A DNA stretch of 64,000 nucleotides from Spirochaetia bacterium (GTDB taxonomy: Bacteria > Spirochaetota > Spirochaetia > SP-2023). Under the pieces are notes generated by a model. The model was not told where the DNA came from. It saw only the letters and a program-made list of their open reading frames with translations, and did no database searches. The stretch lies in NCBI GenBank assembly GCA_965225855.1, contig CBDDCK010000005.1:1664001-1728000 (forward strand), written 5' to 3'. Numbering within the stretch: the stretch's first letter is position 1; each line of letters opens with the position of its first letter. This document shows, one piece after another, positions 30,073 through 62,222 of this stretch. The translations under genes were made by a program, and so were the position numbers.

Positions 30073-31980
30073 ATGTATAAGCTCAAACTATTTTTATGGC
30101 CTGTAGCACTGCTACTGGCCTTTATGGCCTTGGCCTGCGCCCCACCCGATGACGATGATGGGCCATCTTCTGGGCCGACTATCAATAACGCCATCTACGA
30201 CTTTGCTACGGCACTGTTAACCGTACAAGGCACTAACTTAAGTCCTACAGAAGCGCAAATCCAAACCATCGTGGTAGATGGCCTAGCCTTCAGTTCCTAT
30301 TCTGCAGATGCTAAACCCACTGGGCCAGATAGTAGCGGTCTTGCAGAAGGTAAGTACCGCCTGAAAACCGATGGCACAGAGCTTTGGCTTAGACTTACCG
30401 ATGACGATAAAACTACTCTTGAGTCCAAGGTGGGTAGCAATGGTCTAAAAAAAGGGTTGCTTACTAGCACTGGTAGTTGGGCGGGTTTAGATACAGCCAA
30501 AGACTTAACCTATATACCCGATAAGCCATCTAAGCAAGCCGAACAAACCGAACAAGCTGAAGAAGAGTCGCCTAAGCAACCTAAAGACGAACAAGCCGAA
30601 CAAACCGAACAAGCTGAACAAGCCGAACAAGCCGAACAGCAGTCGCCTAAGCAAGCTGAACAAGCCGAACAGCAGTCGCCTAAGCAAGCTGAACAAGCCG
30701 AACAGCAGTCGCCTAAGCAAGCTGAACAAGCCGAACAGCAGTCGCCTAAGCAAGCTGAACAAGCCGAACAGCAGTCGCCTAAGCAAGCTGAACAAGCCGA
30801 ACAAGAGTCGCCTAAGCAAGCCGAACAAGCTGAACAAGCCGAACAAGCTGAACAAGCTGAACAAGCCGCAATTACCGGTGCAAGCTACCATGTTGGCACG
30901 GCGCTGTTAACTTTACAAGGTTCTAACTTAAGTCCTACAACTGCGACCCAAGCCCAAATCCAAACTATCAGGGTAGCTGGCTTAGCCTTCAGTGCCTATA
31001 ATGCAGATGGCACAGCCACTGGGCCAGATAGTCGTGGTCTTGCAAAAGGTAAGTACCGTATGAAAAGCGATGGCACAGCGCTTTGGCTTTACCTTACCGA
31101 TGACGATAAAGATGCTCTGAATGGCAAGACAGGTATGGATAGCAATGGTCTAAAAGATGGGTTGCTTACTAGCACTGGTGCTTGGGCGGGTTTAGATACA
31201 GCCAAAGCCTTGGCCGTTAGTGGAAACCCCGCACCCACAATTACCAGTGCAACCTACAATGTTGCTACAGGCGTGTTAGTGATTACAGGTGTCAATTTAC
31301 CGTCAACAGTGAATCGCTGGGACTTCAGCAAATTGAGGTTTGTTGCAGGTAATGGTGAGAAGAGTCAACCATTAACACGGCACAGCCCAAAAAGAACTGA
31401 CCACTTCGCCAAAGGTTCTAATGCAAGTGCAACAAGCTTAACGATTACTTTAAATGGTAGTCAAAAAGCCAAAGCCGATAAGATATTGGTTAAGAATGGT
31501 CTTCGTGATGATAATGGTGGATACAACCTGGAAGCAGCAGCAGGATTTGCAGGTGGTAACGCTGAAGACACAAGCAATAACCCTATTACCGTTAGTGGGT
31601 ATGTAGTCACAATCAATGATGCATTCTACTCTGCTAATAAAGGCCGGTTAATTATTTCTGGTACTAATTTACCGACAACAGTTGCAGACTGGGACTTTAG
31701 CAAATTGACGCTTGTATCCGGTGATGGTAGTAATAGCTACACATTACCACGGCACGCAACTGCAGGTGCAAACACAGCCACAGGTTCTAGTGCAAATAAA
31801 ATCAGCTTAATTATTTTTTTAAGCGGTACTGTAAAAGCCAAAGCCGATGCTATACTGGTTAAGAATGGTAAAAGTGATAATGCTGGTGCATACAACCTTA
31901 AAGCAGCAGCAGGATTTGCAACGGGTAGCGAAGCAGACCCAACCAATCCTATTGAAGTTGCAGGAGTTGGTAGTAAGTAG
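30073..31980 (+). CDS. Modular repeat surface lipoprotein, paralog 2 (2 A + 2 B)
   Basis: RBS and ATG at 30073; lipobox MALAC; long QAEQ linker. Confidence 0.85.
   Translation: MYKLKLFLWPVALLLAFMALACAPPDDDDGPSSGPTINNAIYDFATALLTVQGTNLSPTEAQIQTIVVDGLAFSSYSADAKPTGPDSSGLAEGKYRLKTDGTELWLRLTDDDKTTLESKVGSNGLKKGLLTSTGSWAGLDTAKDLTYIPDKPSKQAEQTEQAEEESPKQPKDEQAEQTEQAEQAEQAEQQSPKQAEQAEQQSPKQAEQAEQQSPKQAEQAEQQSPKQAEQAEQQSPKQAEQAEQESPKQAEQAEQAEQAEQAEQAAITGASYHVGTALLTLQGSNLSPTTATQAQIQTIRVAGLAFSAYNADGTATGPDSRGLAKGKYRMKSDGTALWLYLTDDDKDALNGKTGMDSNGLKDGLLTSTGAWAGLDTAKALAVSGNPAPTITSATYNVATGVLVITGVNLPSTVNRWDFSKLRFVAGNGEKSQPLTRHSPKRTDHFAKGSNASATSLTITLNGSQKAKADKILVKNGLRDDNGGYNLEAAAGFAGGNAEDTSNNPITVSGYVVTINDAFYSANKGRLIISGTNLPTTVADWDFSKLTLVSGDGSNSYTLPRHATAGANTATGSSANKISLIIFLSGTVKAKADAILVKNGKSDNAGAYNLKAAAGFATGSEADPTNPIEVAGVGSK
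30619..30816 (+). repeat. Coding 33-bp tandem repeat x6 (QAEQAEQQSPK)
   Basis: Units end at 30651, 30684, 30717, 30750, 30783, 30816. Confidence 0.95.
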
Positions 31981-41429: not shown

Positions 41430-41535
41430 TGAAAGAGGACATGATAACTGAACGGGATAAGACGCGATAACTCGGGATTTTTTGGAACAAATGGGAAGGT
41501 AAAAATTGGCTTACTTTCCAAAATAAAAAGGTAAA
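41430..41535 (+). mobile_element. Solo transposon-like end (same type as 61500-61605)
   Basis: TGAAAGAGGACATGATAACTGAACGGGATAAGACGCGATAACTCGGG...; about 105 bp of reverse-complement match to 61500-61605. Confidence 0.85.
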
Positions 41536-41593
41536 AGAAATTTTAGCTAAGGCTAAAGCAGAACAATACCGATAAATAAATACCCCAGCCCCC

Positions 41594-41812
41594 TCTATCA
41601 ATAGAATTACCTCCCACCTATTTAATAGAATTGACCTAAATCTATCAATAGATTTACCTCGCACCTATTTAATAGAATCGACCCAAATCTATCAATAGAA
41701 TTACCTCCCACCTATTTAATAGAATCGACCTAAATCTATCAATAGAATTACCTCCCACCTATTGATAGAATTGACCCAAATCTATCAATAGATTTACCTC
41801 CCACCTATTAAT
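41594..41812. repeat. 47-bp tandem array of paired palindromic boxes, about 4.7 units
   Basis: Units at 41594, 41641, 41688, 41735, 41781; TCTATCAATAGAATTACCTCCCACCTATTTAATAGAATCGACCTAAA; shorter versions at 34021-34145 and 36904-37028. Confidence 0.93.
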
Positions 41813-41815
41813 ACC

Positions 41816-42035
41816 CTAGTCTTTAATGAAATTTTCTACATCGGCACATAATCCAGGACCTATACAACAATCATCGGCAATCGTTGGCCAAATTCTGAAC
41901 GCCCCTGAAAGAATAATATCCCGTTTTCATTTTCATTAAATGTTTCACCTTTTGGAGATTGCCCCATAGTGTAATCAAGGTGTAATCAAGTATTTTATTC
42001 AATTCTACACTTTCCCACCCCCAAAGGCCAAACAA
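41816..42035 (-). pseudogene. hsdS: Degenerate alternative hsdS half (not in the ORF track)
   Basis: Manual translation: GWESVELNKILDYT/MGQSPKGETFNENENGILFFQGRSEFGQRLP ... ADVENFIKD*; 11-bp duplication and internal deletion. Confidence 0.8.
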
Positions 42036-42266
42036 AGGCCCAACCAACACTCTTAAGCCTTTTGATTGGCATGGATTTTTAACTACCTTACAACACTAAT
42101 GACCTAACAAAAACACAAAAAAAGTACCCAAACATAAAAAAAGCACAAAAAAACTTACAAAAAGCTTATATAGGCCTTGACGCAACACCCCCCCTAGCAA
42201 AATGGGGATTTACAGACTAGCCCGTATGGGTTGGTCAATCTTTATCCCTTGTTGGAGGTATTGCTT
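42034..42266 (+). promoter_or_regulatory. Conserved lipoprotein leader (copy 3)
   Basis: Same layout as copy 2; C7 at 42188-42194. Confidence 0.6.
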
Positions 42267-44138
42267 ATGTATAAGCTCAAACTATTTTTATTGCCATTAG
42301 CCTGGCTACTGGTCTTTATGGCCTTGGCCTGCGCCCCACCCGATGACGATGATCGATCTTCTGTGCCATCTAAGCCGTCTAGGCCGACTATCAATAACGC
42401 CATCTACGATGTTGGCAAGGCTCTGTTAACCGTACAAGGTACTGACTTAAGTCCTACAGAAGCCCAAATCCAAACTATCACGGTAGCTGGTGTAGCCTTC
42501 AGTTCCTATACTGCAGATGACCCAGCCACTGGGCCAGATAGTAATGGTCTTGCAGAAGGTAAGTACCGTATTGCAAACGATGGCACAGCGCTTTGGCTGA
42601 AACTTACCGATGACGATAAAGCTACTCTGAATGGCAAGGTGGGTAGCAATGGTCTAAAAAAAGGCTTGCTTACTAGCTCTGGTGCTTGGGCAGGTTTAAA
42701 TACACCTAAAGACTTGGACGTTAGTAATGTACCCGAAAATAAGCAGTCTAAAGTATCCGATGAGAATCAGCCATCTAAGCAAACTGAACAAGCTGAACAA
42801 GTCAAACAAGCTGAAGAGGAGTCGCGTAAACTACCCGAAGCCGAACAAACCGAAGAGGAGTCGCCTAAGCAACCTGAAGAAGCTGAAGAAGACGAACAAG
42901 TCGAACAAGCTGAAGAGGAGTCGCGTAAACTACCCGAAGCCGAACAAACCGAAGAGGAGTCGCCTAAGCAACCTGAAGAAGCTGAAGAAGACGAACAAGT
43001 CGAACAAGCTGAAGATCAGTCGCCTGAAGCCACAATTACCCGTGCAACCTACCATGTTGGTACGGCGCTGTTAACCTTGCAAGGTACTCACTTAAGTGCT
43101 ACAACTGCGACCCAAGCGCAAATCCAAACCATCGTGGTAGATGGCGTAGCCTTAAATTCTTATACTGCAGATGGCACAGCCACTGGGCCAGATAGTCGCA
43201 GTCTTGCAAAAGGTAAGTACCGTATGAAAAGAGATGGCACAGCGCTTTGGCTTTACCTTACCGATCAACATAAAGCTACTCTGAATGGCAAGACAGGTAT
43301 GGATAGCAATGGTCTAAAAGATGGGTTGCTTACTAGCACTGGTGCTTGGGCGGGTTTAAATACAGCCAAAGACTTAACCGTTAGTGGAAACCCACCCGCA
43401 ATTACCCGTGCAACCTACAATGTTGCTACAGGCGTGTTAGTGATTACAGGTACTAATTTACCAGCAGCAGTTGCAGGCTGGGACTTTAGCAAATTGAGGT
43501 TTAGAATAAGTAATAGTTTACGCAGCTACACATTACCCCGGCACTCAACTTTAGGTGCAAACAGAGCCACAGGTTCTGCAGCAAGTGCAACAAGCTTAAC
43601 GATTACTTTAAGCGGTAGAGTAAAAGCGCAAGCGGAAGCCGAGAATATATTGTCTAAGAATGGTCTTACAGGACGTACTGGTGGTGTATACAACCTGGAA
43701 GCAGCAGCAGGATTTGCAGGTGGTAGGGCAGCAGACACAAGCAATAACCCGATTACCGTTAGTGGCTACGCAATCCAGATCGACAGAGTAGAATACTATG
43801 CTGATAAAGGCGAGTTATGGCTTTATGGTACTAATTTACCGACAACAGTTGCAGACTGGGACTTTAGCAAATTGGCGCTTGTATCCGGTGATGGTAGTAA
43901 GGAATACCCATTACCTAAGGACACAACTGCAGGTACTGGGGTATTTGTTGAACTATTTGAATACGTCTTAATTATTACTTTAAGCGGTAGTGTAAAAGCG
44001 GAAGCCAATAAGATACTGGTTAAGAATGGTTATAGTGATGCTAATGGTGCATACAACCTGGAAGCAGCAGCAGGATTTATAATGGGTAATCCAGAAGACC
44101 CAACCACTAGTATTTTGGTTAGTGGGGTTGGTAAGTAG
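42267..44138 (+). CDS. Modular repeat surface lipoprotein, paralog 3 (2 A + 2 B)
   Basis: RBS and ATG at 42267; lipobox MALAC; acidic linker. Confidence 0.85.
   Translation: MYKLKLFLLPLAWLLVFMALACAPPDDDDRSSVPSKPSRPTINNAIYDVGKALLTVQGTDLSPTEAQIQTITVAGVAFSSYTADDPATGPDSNGLAEGKYRIANDGTALWLKLTDDDKATLNGKVGSNGLKKGLLTSSGAWAGLNTPKDLDVSNVPENKQSKVSDENQPSKQTEQAEQVKQAEEESRKLPEAEQTEEESPKQPEEAEEDEQVEQAEEESRKLPEAEQTEEESPKQPEEAEEDEQVEQAEDQSPEATITRATYHVGTALLTLQGTHLSATTATQAQIQTIVVDGVALNSYTADGTATGPDSRSLAKGKYRMKRDGTALWLYLTDQHKATLNGKTGMDSNGLKDGLLTSTGAWAGLNTAKDLTVSGNPPAITRATYNVATGVLVITGTNLPAAVAGWDFSKLRFRISNSLRSYTLPRHSTLGANRATGSAASATSLTITLSGRVKAQAEAENILSKNGLTGRTGGVYNLEAAAGFAGGRAADTSNNPITVSGYAIQIDRVEYYADKGELWLYGTNLPTTVADWDFSKLALVSGDGSKEYPLPKDTTAGTGVFVELFEYVLIITLSGSVKAEANKILVKNGYSDANGAYNLEAAAGFIMGNPEDPTTSILVSGVGK
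42807..43015 (+). repeat. Coding 99-bp tandem duplication in the linker
   Basis: Units start at 42807 and 42906. Confidence 0.9.
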
Positions 44139-57192: not shown

Positions 57193-58317
57193 GTGTCGAA
57201 ACGAGATTATTATGAAGTTCTGGGTGTGGGCAAAAGTGCCAGCACCGATGAAATAAAAAAGGCCTATCGAAAGTTAGCGGTCAAATACCACCCAGACCGA
57301 AACCCCAATAATGCCACAGCAGAAGAAAAATTTAAAGAAGCCACCGAAGCTTATGAAGTTTTAGCTGATACCAAAAAACGCCAGACTTATGACCAATTTG
57401 GCCATGCTGGTTTGGGCAATATGGGAGGAGGAGGTTTTGATTCTTCTGTTTTCTCTGGTTTTGAAGATTTATTTGGTGGAGATTTGGGTAGTATTTTTGG
57501 TAGTTTTTTTGGCGGCAGTGGCAGCGGGCGTTCCACGGGGCGTAATGCTCGCGGCAATGATTTGCGCTATACCATGGATTTGACCCTTTTTGAAGCCGTT
57601 TACGGTTGTAAGAAAGAAATTAGTTTCCGCCGTATAAGCTCCTGTAATACTTGTAAAGGTACGGGTAGCAAGGACGGCAAAGAGCAGTCTTGTGGCCAGT
57701 GCAACGGCATGGGCCAAGTGCGCCGTTCCCAAGGTTTGTTTTCGGTAGCGACAACTTGCCCAGCTTGCCAAGGTTCTGGCCAAGCAATTAGCAATCCATG
57801 TGGTTCTTGTAGAGGGAGCGGCCAACAACAGACTGAGCAACGGGTTAGTGTTACCGTCCCAGCGGGAGTCGATAACGATAGCCGTATTCGGCTGGAAAGT
57901 CAGGGTGATTATGGTCGAGGAAATCGTGCTTCTGCAGGCGATTTATATATTGTCTTTGGAGTCAAGGCTCACTCGTATTTTGAGCGCCACGATCACGACT
58001 TATATTGCGCCATGCATCTCAGTATTACCCAAGCAACCTTGGGTACCACTTTATATTTGGAAACTTTGGATAATAAGCAAATCAAGCTCAAAGTTCCCTC
58101 GGGTTGGCAGTCGGGCAAGAAAATGCGTATCAAAGGTGAGGGAGTGCCATTCTTAGGAAATAGCAGTCGTAGAGGTGATTTGTATGTTCAGTTGATTTTG
58201 CAAACGCCTCAAAAACTTTCTTCCAAAGCCAAGAAGTTATTAGAAGATTTGGCGAAAATTCAAGGAGACAGCGATGACCCTGGCCTACTTTCTCTGCGCG
58301 ATCTTGGACGAGATTAA
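57193..58317 (+). CDS. dnaJ: Chaperone DnaJ
   Basis: HPD J-domain, G/F region, four CxxCxGxG repeats. Confidence 0.98.
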
Positions 58318-58496
58318 TTGTTGCCTTCATAATATTAGGACTGGCTCTTTCGCGAATTTTTGAAGAGGGCGGCTATATGATGCAGGACGTGATAACTTTG
58401 TGCCATCGGACGTGATAACTCGATTTTTTCTACTTACCAAGGCTATAATTGGCAAAAGCAGCCTTAATAAATTTTTCTAGCCTTGCTATGATATAG

Positions 58497-58536
58497 CTTT
58501 CCGCCTTGGATCAAGGCCTTGATCCAAGGCGGAAAG
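58497..58536. repeat. Perfect 40-bp palindrome related to the 46-bp array unit
   Basis: CTTTCCGCCTTGGATCAAGG|CCTTGATCCAAGGCGGAAAG. Confidence 0.9.
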
Positions 58537-58655
58537 ATGTATTGCACCAATGCGGAACAATACTTTATACCAAGGCTATAATTGGCAAAAGCAGCCTTGA
58601 TAAAAAATTTACCAAGGCTGCAATTGGCCAATGCAAGCGTTGCAACAACCAAACC

Positions 58656-60833
58656 CTACTTTATAACTTGAATACTAGTGGTTAGGTCTTCTGGACTACC
58701 AGGTACAAATCCTGCTGCTGCTTCAAGGTTATATGCACCAGTATTATCACTATCACCCTCCTTAACCAGTATCTTCTCGACTTCCGCTTTTACACTACCG
58801 CTTAAAGTAATTATTAATCTTGTTGCACTTGCACGAGAACCTGTGGCTTTGTTTACACCTACAGTTGAGTGCCGTGGTAATGTGAATCTCTTACTACCAT
58901 CACCGGATACAAGCGTCAATTTGCTAAAGTCCCACTCTTCAACTGCTGTCGGTAACCTGATACCTCTAATATATAACTTGCCTTCATCAGCATCGTAGGT
59001 TGCTCTGGTGATGCTGGCTACATAACCACTAACGGTAATAGGGTTGCTTGTGTCTTCTGCGCTACCACCTGCAAAGCCTGCTGCTGCTTCCAGGTTGTAT
59101 GCACCATTAGCATCACGAACACCTTCCTTAACCAGTATCTTCTCGGCTTCCGCTTTTACACTACCGCTTAAAGTAATACTTAAGTAGGTTGTACCTGCAC
59201 GAGAACCTGTGGCTGTGTTTTCACCTGCAGTTGCGTGCCGGGGTAATGTGTAGCTCTTACTACCATCACCGGATACAAGCCTCAATTTGCTAAAGTCCCA
59301 GTCTGCAACTGCTCTCGGTAACTTGATACCTGTAATATATAACTCGCCTGTATTAGCATTGTAGGTTGCTTTGTCGATGCTGGCTACATACCCAATAACG
59401 GTAATAGGGTTGATTGTGTCTTCTGCGCTACCACCTGCAAAGCCTGCTGCTGCTTCCAGGTTGTATGCACCATTAGCATCACGAACACCTTCCTTAACCA
59501 GTATAGCATTGGCTTTGGCTTTTACACTACCGACTAAAGTAATCTTTAAGAATGTTGCACTTGCTTCAGAACCTACGGCTCTGTTTCTATTTTCAGCAAT
59601 ACCTAGGTTTATGTTGTCTTTCCGGGGTAATGTGAATCTCTTAATACCATCACCGGATACAAGCGTCAATTTGGTGAAGTCCCAGCCATACACTGTTGAC
59701 GGTAAATTAGTACCTGTAATCTCTAACAAGCCTAAAGTAACATTATAGGTTACACGGGTAATTGCGGGTGGTGGGTTTCCACTAACGGCCAAGGCTTTGG
59801 CTGTATCTAAACCCGCCCAAGCACCAGTGCCAACGCTAAGCTTACCCTTTTTTAGACCATTGCTATCCATACCTGTCTTGCCATTCAGAGTAGTTTTATC
59901 GGTATCGGTAAGGTAAAGCCAAAGCGCTGTGCCATCGCTTTTCATACGGTACTTACCTTTTGCAAGACTGCGACTATCTGGCCCAGTGGCTGTGGCATCT
60001 GCAGTATAGGAATTTAAGGCTAAGCCATCTACCACGATGGTTTGGATTTGGGCTTGGGTCGCACTACCTAAGTGAGTACCTTGTAAAGTTAACAGCGCCG
60101 TGCCAACATTGTAACTTGCACGGGTAATTGCAGCTTTAGGCGACTCCTCTTCGACTTGTTCGTCTTTAGGTTGCTTAGGCAACTGATCTTCGGCTTCGGG
60201 TAGCTTAAGCGACTGATCTTCAGTTTCGGTCTTAGACTGCTTATCTTCGACTTCTTCGGTTTGTTCAGCTTGTTTGGCTTGTTCAGCTTGTTCGGCTTGC
60301 TTAGGCGACTGCTTATCTTCAGTTTGCTTAGGCGACTGCTTATCGGGTATATTCCTAACGGTTAAGTCTTTGGCTGTATCTAAACCCGCCCAAGCACCAG
60401 AGCTAGTAAGCAACCCTTTTTTTAGACCATCGCTACCCACCTTGGCCTCAAGAACAGCTTTATGTTGCTCGGTAAGTCTAAGCCAAAGCGCTGTGCCATC
60501 GTTTGCAATACGGTACTTACCTTCTGCAAGACCGTTACTATCTGGCCCAGTGGCTGGGTCATCTGCAGTATAGGAATCTAAGGCTACACCATTTGTTCGG
60601 CTTCCTACCCTGATAGTTTGGATTTGCGCTTGGGTCGCAGTTGTAGGACTTAAGTGAGTACCTTGTACGGTTAACAGCGCCGTGCCAACATCGTAGATAG
60701 CGTTATTGATAGTCGGCCCAGAAGGCCCAGAAGGCCCAGAAGATGGTGCATCGTCATCGGGTGGGGCGCAGGCCAAGGCCATAAAGGCCAGTAGCCAGGC
60801 TACTGGCAATAAAAATAGTTTGAGCTTATACAT
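58656..60833 (-). CDS. Modular repeat surface lipoprotein, paralog 4 (2 A + 3 B)
   Basis: RBS and ATG at 60833; lipobox MALAC. Confidence 0.85.
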   Translation of the reverse strand: MYKLKLFLLPVAWLLAFMALACAPPDDDAPSSGPSGPSGPTINNAIYDVGTALLTVQGTHLSPTTATQAQIQTIRVGSRTNGVALDSYTADDPATGPDSNGLAEGKYRIANDGTALWLRLTEQHKAVLEAKVGSDGLKKGLLTSSGAWAGLDTAKDLTVRNIPDKQSPKQTEDKQSPKQAEQAEQAKQAEQTEEVEDKQSKTETEDQSLKLPEAEDQLPKQPKDEQVEEESPKAAITRASYNVGTALLTLQGTHLGSATQAQIQTIVVDGLALNSYTADATATGPDSRSLAKGKYRMKSDGTALWLYLTDTDKTTLNGKTGMDSNGLKKGKLSVGTGAWAGLDTAKALAVSGNPPPAITRVTYNVTLGLLEITGTNLPSTVYGWDFTKLTLVSGDGIKRFTLPRKDNINLGIAENRNRAVGSEASATFLKITLVGSVKAKANAILVKEGVRDANGAYNLEAAAGFAGGSAEDTINPITVIGYVASIDKATYNANTGELYITGIKLPRAVADWDFSKLRLVSGDGSKSYTLPRHATAGENTATGSRAGTTYLSITLSGSVKAEAEKILVKEGVRDANGAYNLEAAAGFAGGSAEDTSNPITVSGYVASITRATYDADEGKLYIRGIRLPTAVEEWDFSKLTLVSGDGSKRFTLPRHSTVGVNKATGSRASATRLIITLSGSVKAEVEKILVKEGDSDNTGAYNLEAAAGFVPGSPEDLTTSIQVIK

Positions 60834-60980
60834 AAGCAATACCTCCAAGAATGGATAAAGATTAGCCAACCCATACGGGCTAGTGCATAGAGCCCTATTG
60901 TGTTAGGGGGGGAATTGAGTCAAGGCCCATATAAGCTTTTTGTAAGTTTTTTACAAGTTTTTTTGTTTTTTAGTGTTTTG
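60834..60980 (-). promoter_or_regulatory. Conserved lipoprotein leader (copy 4)
   Basis: TTGACT, C7 (G7 at 60906-60912 on the + strand), hairpins, GGAGG. Confidence 0.6.
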
Positions 60981-61193
60981 CTTAATAGTGATGGTTTAAA
61001 GTATAGAAGAGCTGTTGCGTTGCGTATGATCGTAGTAAACATCATGGCACAAAGTATAAGAATTTGGTATAAGAATTTGAGTTTTTTGTATCGCAGTACA
61101 GCCCAGTTTTTAGCAAAATAATACAATACAATTTTTTGCGATTTTTTTAGAGACTGCCACAGTCTCATTGGAAAATCCCTAGGTTGCCAATCA

Positions 61194-61236
61194 AAAAAGC
61201 TAGTAAGGTTTTCAGTCAAAACCTTACTAGCTTTTT
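61194..61236. terminator. Perfect 19-bp hairpin, bidirectional-terminator-like
   Basis: AAAAAGCTAGTAAGGTTTT-CAGTC-AAAACCTTACTAGCTTTTT. Confidence 0.75.
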
Positions 61237-61619
61237 GAGACCGTGGCCCGTTACCATGATATTTTGAAAGCATATTGTTGCCCAATTACTGCCGACAACC
61301 CATATGCCGAAAAACAAAAATTTTTTACTTGTTCCATTTGTGGATTCAGCCGAAAGGCATAAAAAAAGCGGTGCATGGTTTGGTTATCCTAGCACCGCTT
61401 TGGCTTTTTGAAGTTTTGAGCGTTTTGCTCTGGTTTGGTGTTAAAAATGGATTCTGGCTTTTTCTCGTGCAATGAAAATTTTTTACTTTTTTATTTTGGT
61501 TTTACTTTTTTATTTTGGAAAGTAAGCCAATTTTACCTTCCCATTTGTTCCAAAAAATCCCGAGTTATCACGTCTTATCCCGTTCAGTTATCATGTCCTC
61601 TTTCAGCTATAACATTCAA

Positions 61620-62222
61620 TTATAAGCTTAAACCACACCATAATTGCCAGCCAGTATAAAACAACAAAAATAATAGAATGGCTAATCCTGCTCCCTTTTC
61701 CAGTGCTATATTGTAGGCACCATGCCATAGTAGGGCTATCACAAAAAATAATCGGCTTTTGCGCTGGAATATTTTTAAAGCAATTAGCGAGCTTAAACAC
61801 GAATGTACTAAACTGCTAGGCAGCCGCCAGTAAATGCTATTTAAATTATAGCTAAGGGCATACCATAAATTTTCAGCGGAGGCAAAACCCAAGCCTAAAG
61901 CAATTCCTATTAGGATAAATAAATACGCTGATCTATTTGATGTAATTTTGTGGCACGAAATATGTAGCAAAATAAATTTAATGGTCTCCTCCAAAAAGGA
62001 AGCAACAAGAGGTTGTACTAAAAAAGTGATAGGGGGTTGAAGGGGCTGAATCCAACTGACTAAAAGGCCGACAAGATAGCGTTCTGGGAAAACAGAAGCA
62101 AAAGCAGCAAGGGCTCCTAACAAAAAAGCTGTCGTCAATAAAGCTTGGGAATGGGGGAGCACAAACCAGTTAAATAATAGCAATACAAGAATTAGTCCTC
62201 CCCCTAAAAATAAGCCAAGCAT
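61620..62222 (-). CDS. PrsW family intramembrane metalloprotease
   Basis: EETIK; GLGFASAEN..Y; H; WHGAYN. Confidence 0.85.
   Translation of the reverse strand: MLGLFLGGGLILVLLLFNWFVLPHSQALLTTAFLLGALAAFASVFPERYLVGLLVSWIQPLQPPITFLVQPLVASFLEETIKFILLHISCHKITSNRSAYLFILIGIALGLGFASAENLWYALSYNLNSIYWRLPSSLVHSCLSSLIALKIFQRKSRLFFVIALLWHGAYNIALEKGAGLAILLFLLFYTGWQLWCGLSL

Follow-up and report, generated by a model that had tools for sequence, protein, structure and literature searches.

A predicted lipoprotein gene between the ends of a B3/BcepMu-type prophage: a likely natural mini-Mu in a Spirochaetia bacterium

Mini-Mu elements have been described as laboratory tools, and natural mobile insertion cassettes (MICs) have been described with insertion sequence (IS) or Tn3 ends. 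Engineered mini-Mu and mini-D3112 constructs carry two phage ends in cis around non-phage DNA and no phage genes; transposase and ATPase are supplied from elsewhere, and multiple chromosomal copies result (PMC3145075 and PMC8705779, each in its accessible parts). The transcription activator-like effector (TALE) MICs of Xanthomonas, with TnXax1 ends, place a passenger gene between transposon ends without a transposase; some copies have duplications, solo ends occur, and only part of the repeat-protein family is associated with them (available sections of PMC4337579). Here we describe a 3,228-bp element at positions 58378-61605 of a 64-kb window, the whole stretch of 64,000 nucleotides analysed, from a Spirochaetia bacterium (GCA_965225855.1, contig CBDDCK010000005.1, positions 1,664,001 to 1,728,000). 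It is very likely an insertion bounded by both ends of a B3/BcepMu-type prophage on the same chromosome and probably placed there by the DDE transposase of that prophage acting in trans, in other words a natural mini-Mu.

The element runs from TGA to TCA between the convergent dnaJ and PrsW-family genes. Its left end (L), read from 58378, is TGATGCAG-GACGTGATAACT-N11-GACGTGATAACT-CG, and its right end (R), read as the reverse complement from 61605, is TGAAAGAG-GACATGATAACT-N11-GACGTGATAACT-CG. L and R refer to the left and right of the window and differ from the convention used for Mu. Each end has two 12-bp boxes with a 23-bp period, the first box lying 8 bp inside the terminus. Both transposable-phage ends are present in the correct orientation (63 bp and 260 bp) and the phage body is absent. 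The sole long open reading frame (ORF) encodes a predicted 725-aa lipoprotein on the minus strand; the remaining ORFs are short (at most 125 aa) and alternative-frame or intergenic. An earlier note on this DNA had reported the ends, boxes, offset, period and GCTATA duplication, all of which proved exact when re-read from the sequence, and had stated that no transposase is encoded. Indeed, Pfam matched no transposase domain in the 725-aa cargo protein, and the single rve match of the genome lies outside the window. The boundaries and non-coding parts of the element are as follows.

58372..58377, plus strand: left copy of the target duplication GCTATA, present as a single copy in the empty allele of sequencing run X4
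58378..58440, plus strand: L end with TGA terminus and boxes at 58386-58397 and 58409-58420; corresponds to the last 63 bp of the prophage at its tail-gene end (C5:1293766), 60/63 identical
58435..58646, no strand: short dispersed repeats and hairpins 3' of the cargo gene, common to most paralogues
60970..61336, no strand: non-phage spacer with a perfect 19-bp inverted repeat at 61194-61236, found almost exclusively beside end-bearing paralogues
61337..61605, minus strand: R end with TGA terminus at 61605 and boxes at 61597-61586 and 61574-61563; comprises about 260 bp from the opposite prophage end (C5:1257688 onward), 95.0% identical over 261 bp
61606..61611, plus strand: right copy of the target duplication GCTATA, read from the sequence

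The source genome (G000; 2.71 Mb in 5 contigs, 94% complete) contains one rve-type transposase that we could find, and it lies inside a prophage of 36.1 kb (C5:1257677-1293766) that has an R end on one side and an L end on the other. The element shares with it about 260 bp of R end at 95% identity and 63 bp of L end (60/63). Structural genes of the prophage, assigned with PHROGs, include terminase, portal, head protease, major head, sheath, tape measure and baseplate genes. Its early genes, assigned with Pfam, include DUF3102, DUF3164, GemA, Mor, a repressor and an AAA ATPase, and this set matches the one annotated in phage B3. The phage transposases most similar to that of the prophage include those of Komp_PAO1_1, Bise, Ps59, BcepMu and B3 (28-38% identical), and the D, D and E residues align with those of B3. 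The reading frames of transposase and ATPase are open. The tape-measure gene is split over two frames, baseplate J is disrupted and the portal frame is short; a partial copy of the prophage on C4 has a 344-aa baseplate J. With its rve-type DDE transposase and ATPase, early gene set, length and head and tail genes, the helper is, judged by gene content, a B3/BcepMu-type transposable phage present as a defective copy. We infer that its transposase mobilises the element in trans.

Two further observations concern the surroundings of phage DNA. At C3:774-928 a prophage L end lies directly against the repressor region of the same prophage, present as a 95% copy, which may be read as one prophage copy inserted into, or rearranged with, another. 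A tmRNA gene found with Rfam and missed by ARAGORN starts about 210 bp beyond the prophage L end (L004:8980-9337, equal to C5:1293979-1294336).

A different source of the ends would be an IS481-, IS1202- or Tn552-type element that is absent from the assembly or has been lost, the prophage merely having the same ends. This is in line with the incompleteness of the assembly, whose five contigs break at repeats, and with the placement of B3 and Tn552 transposases in one family (accessible part of PMC8705779). The similarity to the prophage, however, extends over 260 bp at 95% identity, far beyond the boxes. PF13683 has 0 matches in G000, whereas 8 of 14 controls match, and no stand-alone element with these ends was found in G000, the single PF00665 match lying in the prophage. 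PF09299 and PF02914 matched nowhere, controls included, and are uninformative. Furthermore, a related prophage in G002, a genome of the same genus, is bounded by ends of the same build. We therefore consider a missing IS or Tn552-type mobiliser very improbable.

The prophage of G002 encodes a transposase 55% identical to the one in G000 and is bounded by TGA-N5-box-N11-box ends with near-identical boxes. It spans 27.8 kb, without head or terminase matches and without a duplication. Because the same end build bounds this prophage, the boxes go with the transposase lineage and not with the lipoprotein genes. No mini-elements were found in G002, where a relaxed two-box pattern matched only the two prophage ends; the same pattern matched one orphan end in G001 and none in G003.

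The insertion itself can be seen as a strain difference. Public sequencing runs in which this DNA occurs come from two studies, and their contigs were aligned on the left junction; no RNA run was listed among them, which does not speak for or against expression. In run X4, from the other study, one contig covers 58338-58377, ends its match in GCTATA and continues for 166 further letters; 29 of the 30 letters shown past GCTATA match window positions 61612-61641. This empty-site contig has a depth of 7.6 versus 9.7 for a neighbouring single-copy contig, and no X4 record running into the element at the left junction was seen. Run X2, made from the sample whose contigs match the window and hence possibly the origin of the assembly, has a filled site. 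Over the eight single-copy pieces listed, X4 and the window show 22 differences in about 3,150 letters (0.7%), and X4 contains the lipoprotein family at high depth. Because X4 is empty with a single GCTATA and X2 is filled, the insertion varies within the species; it is limited exactly by TGA...TCA and has a 6-bp duplication. The sister species G001 and G002 are uninformative for the empty site, as their prsW has other neighbours and their dnaJ is located elsewhere.

The empty allele also bears on a regulatory reading of the boxes, in which they are transcription-factor operators of the lipoprotein genes. Nearly all boxes lie near such genes, and Mu-type repressors can bind end-like sites. At both ends, however, the boxes keep a constant distance of 8 bp from the TGA terminus. 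They also delimit prophages in two genomes and mark the exact edges of the insertion polymorphism, and 69 family members lack them. The empty allele refutes an operator role as their primary role, and we give this reading almost no weight.

Genome-wide, 48 two-box ends are found when two mismatches per box are allowed, and the termini identified number 32 L and 30 R (62). Sixteen facing R-L pairs span 2.4-3.7 kb, and five of them have an exact 6-bp duplication: CTTTAA, GTTATG, GTTAGG, TATAAT and, at the window element, GCTATA. From the base frequencies of the flanks themselves, a duplication is expected by chance in 1 of 700 pairs, so that five in 16 corresponds to P of about 3e-11. The pair at C5:1449578-1452721 has a clean unfilled paralogous site with a single GTTAGG; further unfilled sites exist for C1:5963-8996 and for the flanks of R 1592757 and L 1623409. 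The latter two ends are parts of different, oppositely oriented elements, and an ATTAGG match links L 1590138 and R 1616622. Taken together, these flanks and this match form the pattern that two nested inversions between copies would be expected to leave. The outer flanks of most termini are unique, and only 2 of the 62 termini have their outer junction inside an ORF of at least 150 aa, a class of ORF that makes up 81% of the genome.

Among individual ends, those at C1:5963, C5:1592757 and C5:1620029 (all R) are preceded by GCTTAAT. For two of them, an unfilled paralogous site shows that the R-side target copy stops after GCTT and that AAT comes next, which gives the impression that one donor supplied the end together with three bases of its former flank. 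The element at C5:402242-405702 lies between inverted copies of a 232-bp sequence (99% identical) and has no direct 6-bp duplication. At C5:1594979-1598895, two L ends face inward on either side of a 953-aa paralogue; one of them retains a longer piece of phage DNA, and there is no duplication. A one-box L end at C5:2013500 faces an operon labelled from ORF reading as an iron-siderophore-type ABC transporter instead of a family lipoprotein. A palindromic repeat with the core CCCCGACTA-AA-TAGT occurs upstream of many lipoprotein genes, at 23 or more loci, and its centre is occupied by four R ends and one L end. The cumulative GC skew of C5 turns several times at about 1.05-1.6 Mb, where many ends cluster; this would fit repeated inversions. 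IS605 OrfB has no match in G000, and 8 of 14 controls match.

The insides of the elements are informative as well. Phage and non-phage DNA meet at recurrent junctions at many loci, at 63 or 73 bp on the L side and at about 106, 212 or 271 bp on the R side, and the non-phage spacer also recurs at many loci. Because junctions and spacer are shared in this way, the gutted form spread as a unit. This argues against a full phage that was inserted and then gutted in place, the lipoprotein gene entering later. In favour of such decay, partial prophage copies lie at C3:1-774, C4:334779-343005 and C5:2030137-2030826 and three L ends retain about 280-350 bp of phage DNA. Nevertheless, the junctions and the spacer that recur at many loci leave gutting in place with only a slim chance of being correct.

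We propose that, in a prophage copy, the body was exchanged for a lipoprotein cassette, probably through recombination between short repeats; such repeats are found beside lipoprotein genes and, as relatives of those at 58435..58646, about 0.9-1.1 kb inside the prophage L end. The transposase would bind both 12-bp boxes of each end, cut the TG...CA termini and join them to the target with a 6-bp stagger. Later, copies could recombine among themselves as well as with paralogues that lack ends, or transpose replicatively, which would make the cargo mosaic and swap flanks, and most pairs would lose their duplication through this swapping. Insertions would survive mostly between genes, and slippage of a C run in the promoter could switch single copies on and generate a variable surface repertoire.

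The genome encodes at least 109 paralogues of the cargo, found by a signal-peptide scan; they occupy 213 kb, about 8% of the 2.71 Mb. This number is a lower bound because a sister subfamily (C5:353763) has a different signal peptide. Forty of the 109 (37%) lie beside an end: 16 have R and L, one has an L on each side, 13 have R only and 10 have L only. Internal phage R-side DNA is found at one of the other 69 genes (C3:48054). A common terminal repeat was looked for around these 69 end-less genes and none was found, their shared flanks ending raggedly. The end-less paralogues may be older, or their ends may have eroded past recognition.

The genes themselves are mosaic. Trees were built from 102 full-length proteins, seven short ones being left out, separately for N-terminal and C-terminal segments. 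The two trees have no common splits among their 38 and 35 well-supported ones. Tracts of up to 303 bp are identical between the window cargo and many different paralogues, end-less ones included. Four R ends have the same outer flank and two L ends have 52 bp of outer flank in common. Flanks swapped between elements would fit recombination between copies as well as replicative transposition. Recombination among copies appears to be frequent relative to point mutation and would therefore have erased the history of spread.

Several observations weigh against the mini-Mu reading. The empty allele is known from a single contig in a single run, which has 40 letters on the left side, and no record came from X5 or X6 at this place. 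In the prophage the outermost 11 bp of the R end are missing, its flanks are unmatched and it has no duplication of its own, so that the intact TG...CA termini with flanking 6-bp duplication expected of a B3/BcepMu-type phage are missing in the helper. Eleven of the 16 facing pairs lack a duplication. Exact flank matches between unpaired ends number 3 versus 1.35 expected (P 0.15), which is within chance, and we rejected them as independent evidence. No phage terminus accompanies 69 of the 109 paralogues, and the terminal 73 bp of the phage L end have no match at any of these 69; of the 27 genes with an L terminus, 17 have a phage-derived L-side motif next to them, compared with 0 of the 82 without. 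End-bearing and end-less genes are randomly mixed in both trees (33 changes of end state in the N-terminal tree versus a shuffled mean of 31.7; 31 versus 31.6 in the C-terminal tree). Finally, the best paralogue of the window cargo is 75% identical and end-less, and no whole donor copy was found.

Much of this could also mean that the phage ends are mostly passengers. Few elements would then have transposed, the family would already have been large, and most ends would have been copied by homologous recombination or gene conversion. The end-less majority of genes, the random position of ends on the gene trees, the lack of common supported splits, the flanks shared by four R ends and by two L ends and the pairs without a duplication all speak for such a history, which is plausible but falls somewhat short of an even chance. 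It cannot explain the window locus, with its precise ends, duplication and empty allele, or the four other duplications, and most termini have outer flanks of their own. It is compatible with the mini-Mu reading and differs from it only in the share of the spread that is ascribed to transposition. In view of the 69 end-less paralogues, the 11 pairs without a duplication and the mosaic genes, transposition by way of the phage ends explains part of the spread of the family and not all of it.

The earlier note had proposed a non-autonomous DDE cargo element that disperses an adhesin-like gene family. The first part is borne out: the single-GCTATA empty dnaJ-prsW site that it called for exists in a strain about 0.7% different, a DDE transposase lies between the same ends in the prophage, and the motif copies do pair, with 6-bp duplications, in the numbers given above. 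Its comparison of the ends with those of IS481, IS1202 and Tn552 gives way to their identification as ends of a B3/BcepMu-type prophage. Dispersal of the family holds for the 40 paralogues that adjoin an end and is not apparent for the 69 without a terminus.

The cargo gene, its predicted promoter and the flanking genes lie as follows.

57193..58317, plus strand: dnaJ, left flank, intact (ORF and Pfam)
58656..60833, minus strand: cargo, gene of the 725-aa predicted lipoprotein (ORF list, signal peptide, internal repeats)
60897..60923, minus strand: predicted promoter with TTGACT, a 15-nt spacer containing a C7 run, and CACAAT; the run reads as G7 at 60906-60912 on the plus strand
61620..62222, minus strand: PrsW-family gene, right flank, intact (Pfam PF13367, E 4e-10), its stop codon 8 bp from the duplication

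The window holds three further family members. One, at 41430-44138, is a 623-aa paralogue without an L end; its R end (C5:1705430) lies 837 bp upstream of it. Two have no phage ends: 12601-15336 (minus strand, 911 aa) and 30073-31980 (plus strand, 635 aa).

The cargo, a predicted lipoprotein, has a lipobox-like signal peptide in which Cys22 follows MALA. It also has two repeats in its N-terminal part, a linker rich in Q, E and K, and three repeats that each measure about 122 aa. Neither Pfam nor a PDB sequence search named a family for it, and a CrtC Pfam match was below the cut-off and disregarded. Among 8,000 candidates scored, 89 near-length homologues of residues 355-725 were found, 84 of them on contigs that match those of G000 in length and five on other ENA contigs. 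Longer homologues include proteins of 2,434 and 2,668 aa with DUF4347 and SWM_repeat, one of them with RTX repeats. The cargo repeats are about 30% identical to the tandem repeats of such giant proteins, and 32-33% identical to those of the 2,434- and 2,668-aa proteins (E 2e-21 and 1e-37). Atlas feature matches that name a family are SWM_repeat and Ig-like (Big_5), with scores below 0.9. From these features, the cargo may be an adhesin-like stalk held by a lipid anchor, a reading that we treat as a lead.

Upstream of 108 of the 109 family genes lies TTGACN, followed by a C-run spacer and a CAAAAT-like hexamer. The spacer is 15 nt long in 85 genes, the window cargo included, 14 nt in 20, and 13, 16 and 17 nt in one gene each; the homopolymeric C runs between -35 and -10 measure 5-9, with C9 in the copy at C5:803129. 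If the hexamer is a -10 element, the one copy with 17 nt would be optimally spaced and the others weak, and the promoter of the window cargo is predicted to be weak or off at its 15-nt spacing. A scan for consensus promoters did not pick it up. We speculate further, as an improbable extension of the mini-Mu reading, that the host domesticated a transposable phage as a diversification engine, with intact transposase and ATPase, decaying virion genes, mini-Mu ends seeding more than 100 mosaic lipoproteins, and a C run that switches on one or a few.

Beyond the source genome, the strict end pattern had no match in 5 genomes and the end pattern none in viral and metagenome contigs, and 0 of 9 candidates for the prophage transposase in viral contigs were confirmed. 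Among 185,579 species genomes the end pattern matched once, in a record of the genus Ca. Haliotispira (L042), presumably a spirochaete genus. The cargo lipoprotein was not found in 40 relatives with a whole-protein query or in G001-G003 with a repeat-region query. The orphan two-box end of G001 has a TGA terminus and stands at C4:637034 (L039), directly behind a putative host gene that we take to be infA. Further transposable-prophage regions occur in G002 (C1:229792-257556 and C1:2088921-2110491) and G001 (C4:710-28480 and 854161-894265). Both regions of G002 have tail and transposition genes without head or terminase matches, and may be tailocin-like remnants.

How does the element compare with the described systems? 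It works like an engineered mini-Mu and also like a MIC, with a passenger gene between inverted ends, no transposase inside, a duplication with an empty allele, and a cognate transposase in the genome. It belongs to no described MIC family as far as the available part of PMC4337579 defines them, since its ends are those of a transposable phage and not of an IS or Tn3-family element; the 6-bp duplication and the predicted surface-lipoprotein cargo set it apart as well. In the accessible text of PMC4337579, 45% of TALE genes are in MICs, and here 40 of 109 paralogues adjoin an end. In B3-type phages the duplications made are 6 bp long and the ends are mostly TG-CA (PMC8705779, in part). B3/BcepMu-type phages, Leptospira transposable prophages among them, resemble the helper in their TG...CA ends, 6-bp duplications and length (36 kb, within a range of 36-39 kb for the type) and in their rve transposase, AAA ATPase, DUF3102, DUF3164, GemA, Mor and Mu-like head and tail genes. 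The window element, unlike these phages, has no phage gene, and the accessible accounts of the Leptospira prophages describe no cargo-bearing mini derivatives. We found no description of a natural cargo-bearing mini-Mu in the open-access literature, where the tables of PMC8705779 could list short prophage derivatives; the main text of a review of prokaryotic miniature inverted-repeat transposable elements (PMC10969869, as available) has no word starting with 'phage'.

The element links transposable phages to the expansion of a host gene family, to surface variation and to chromosome rearrangement, and it defines a small two-box end with a cognate transposase that may become a genetic tool for these bacteria. 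Variable surface-lipoprotein families with homopolymer switches in the promoter and gene conversion are known from the Mycoplasma Vlp, Neisseria PorA promoter and Borrelia Vls/Vmp systems. The cargo family resembles them in its many paralogues, its mosaic genes and the homopolymer between -35 and -10, and differs in that its copies are singly dispersed and over a third lie beside transposable-phage ends. Compared with Mu-type elements, which have 5-bp duplications and three sites per end, the window element is of B3 type, with an rve transposase in its helper, a 6-bp duplication and two boxes per end at a 23-bp period. Unlike engineered mini-Mu elements, it is natural and its cargo belongs to a host gene family; here, a natural transposable-phage derivative carries a host gene and differs in presence between strains 0.7% apart.

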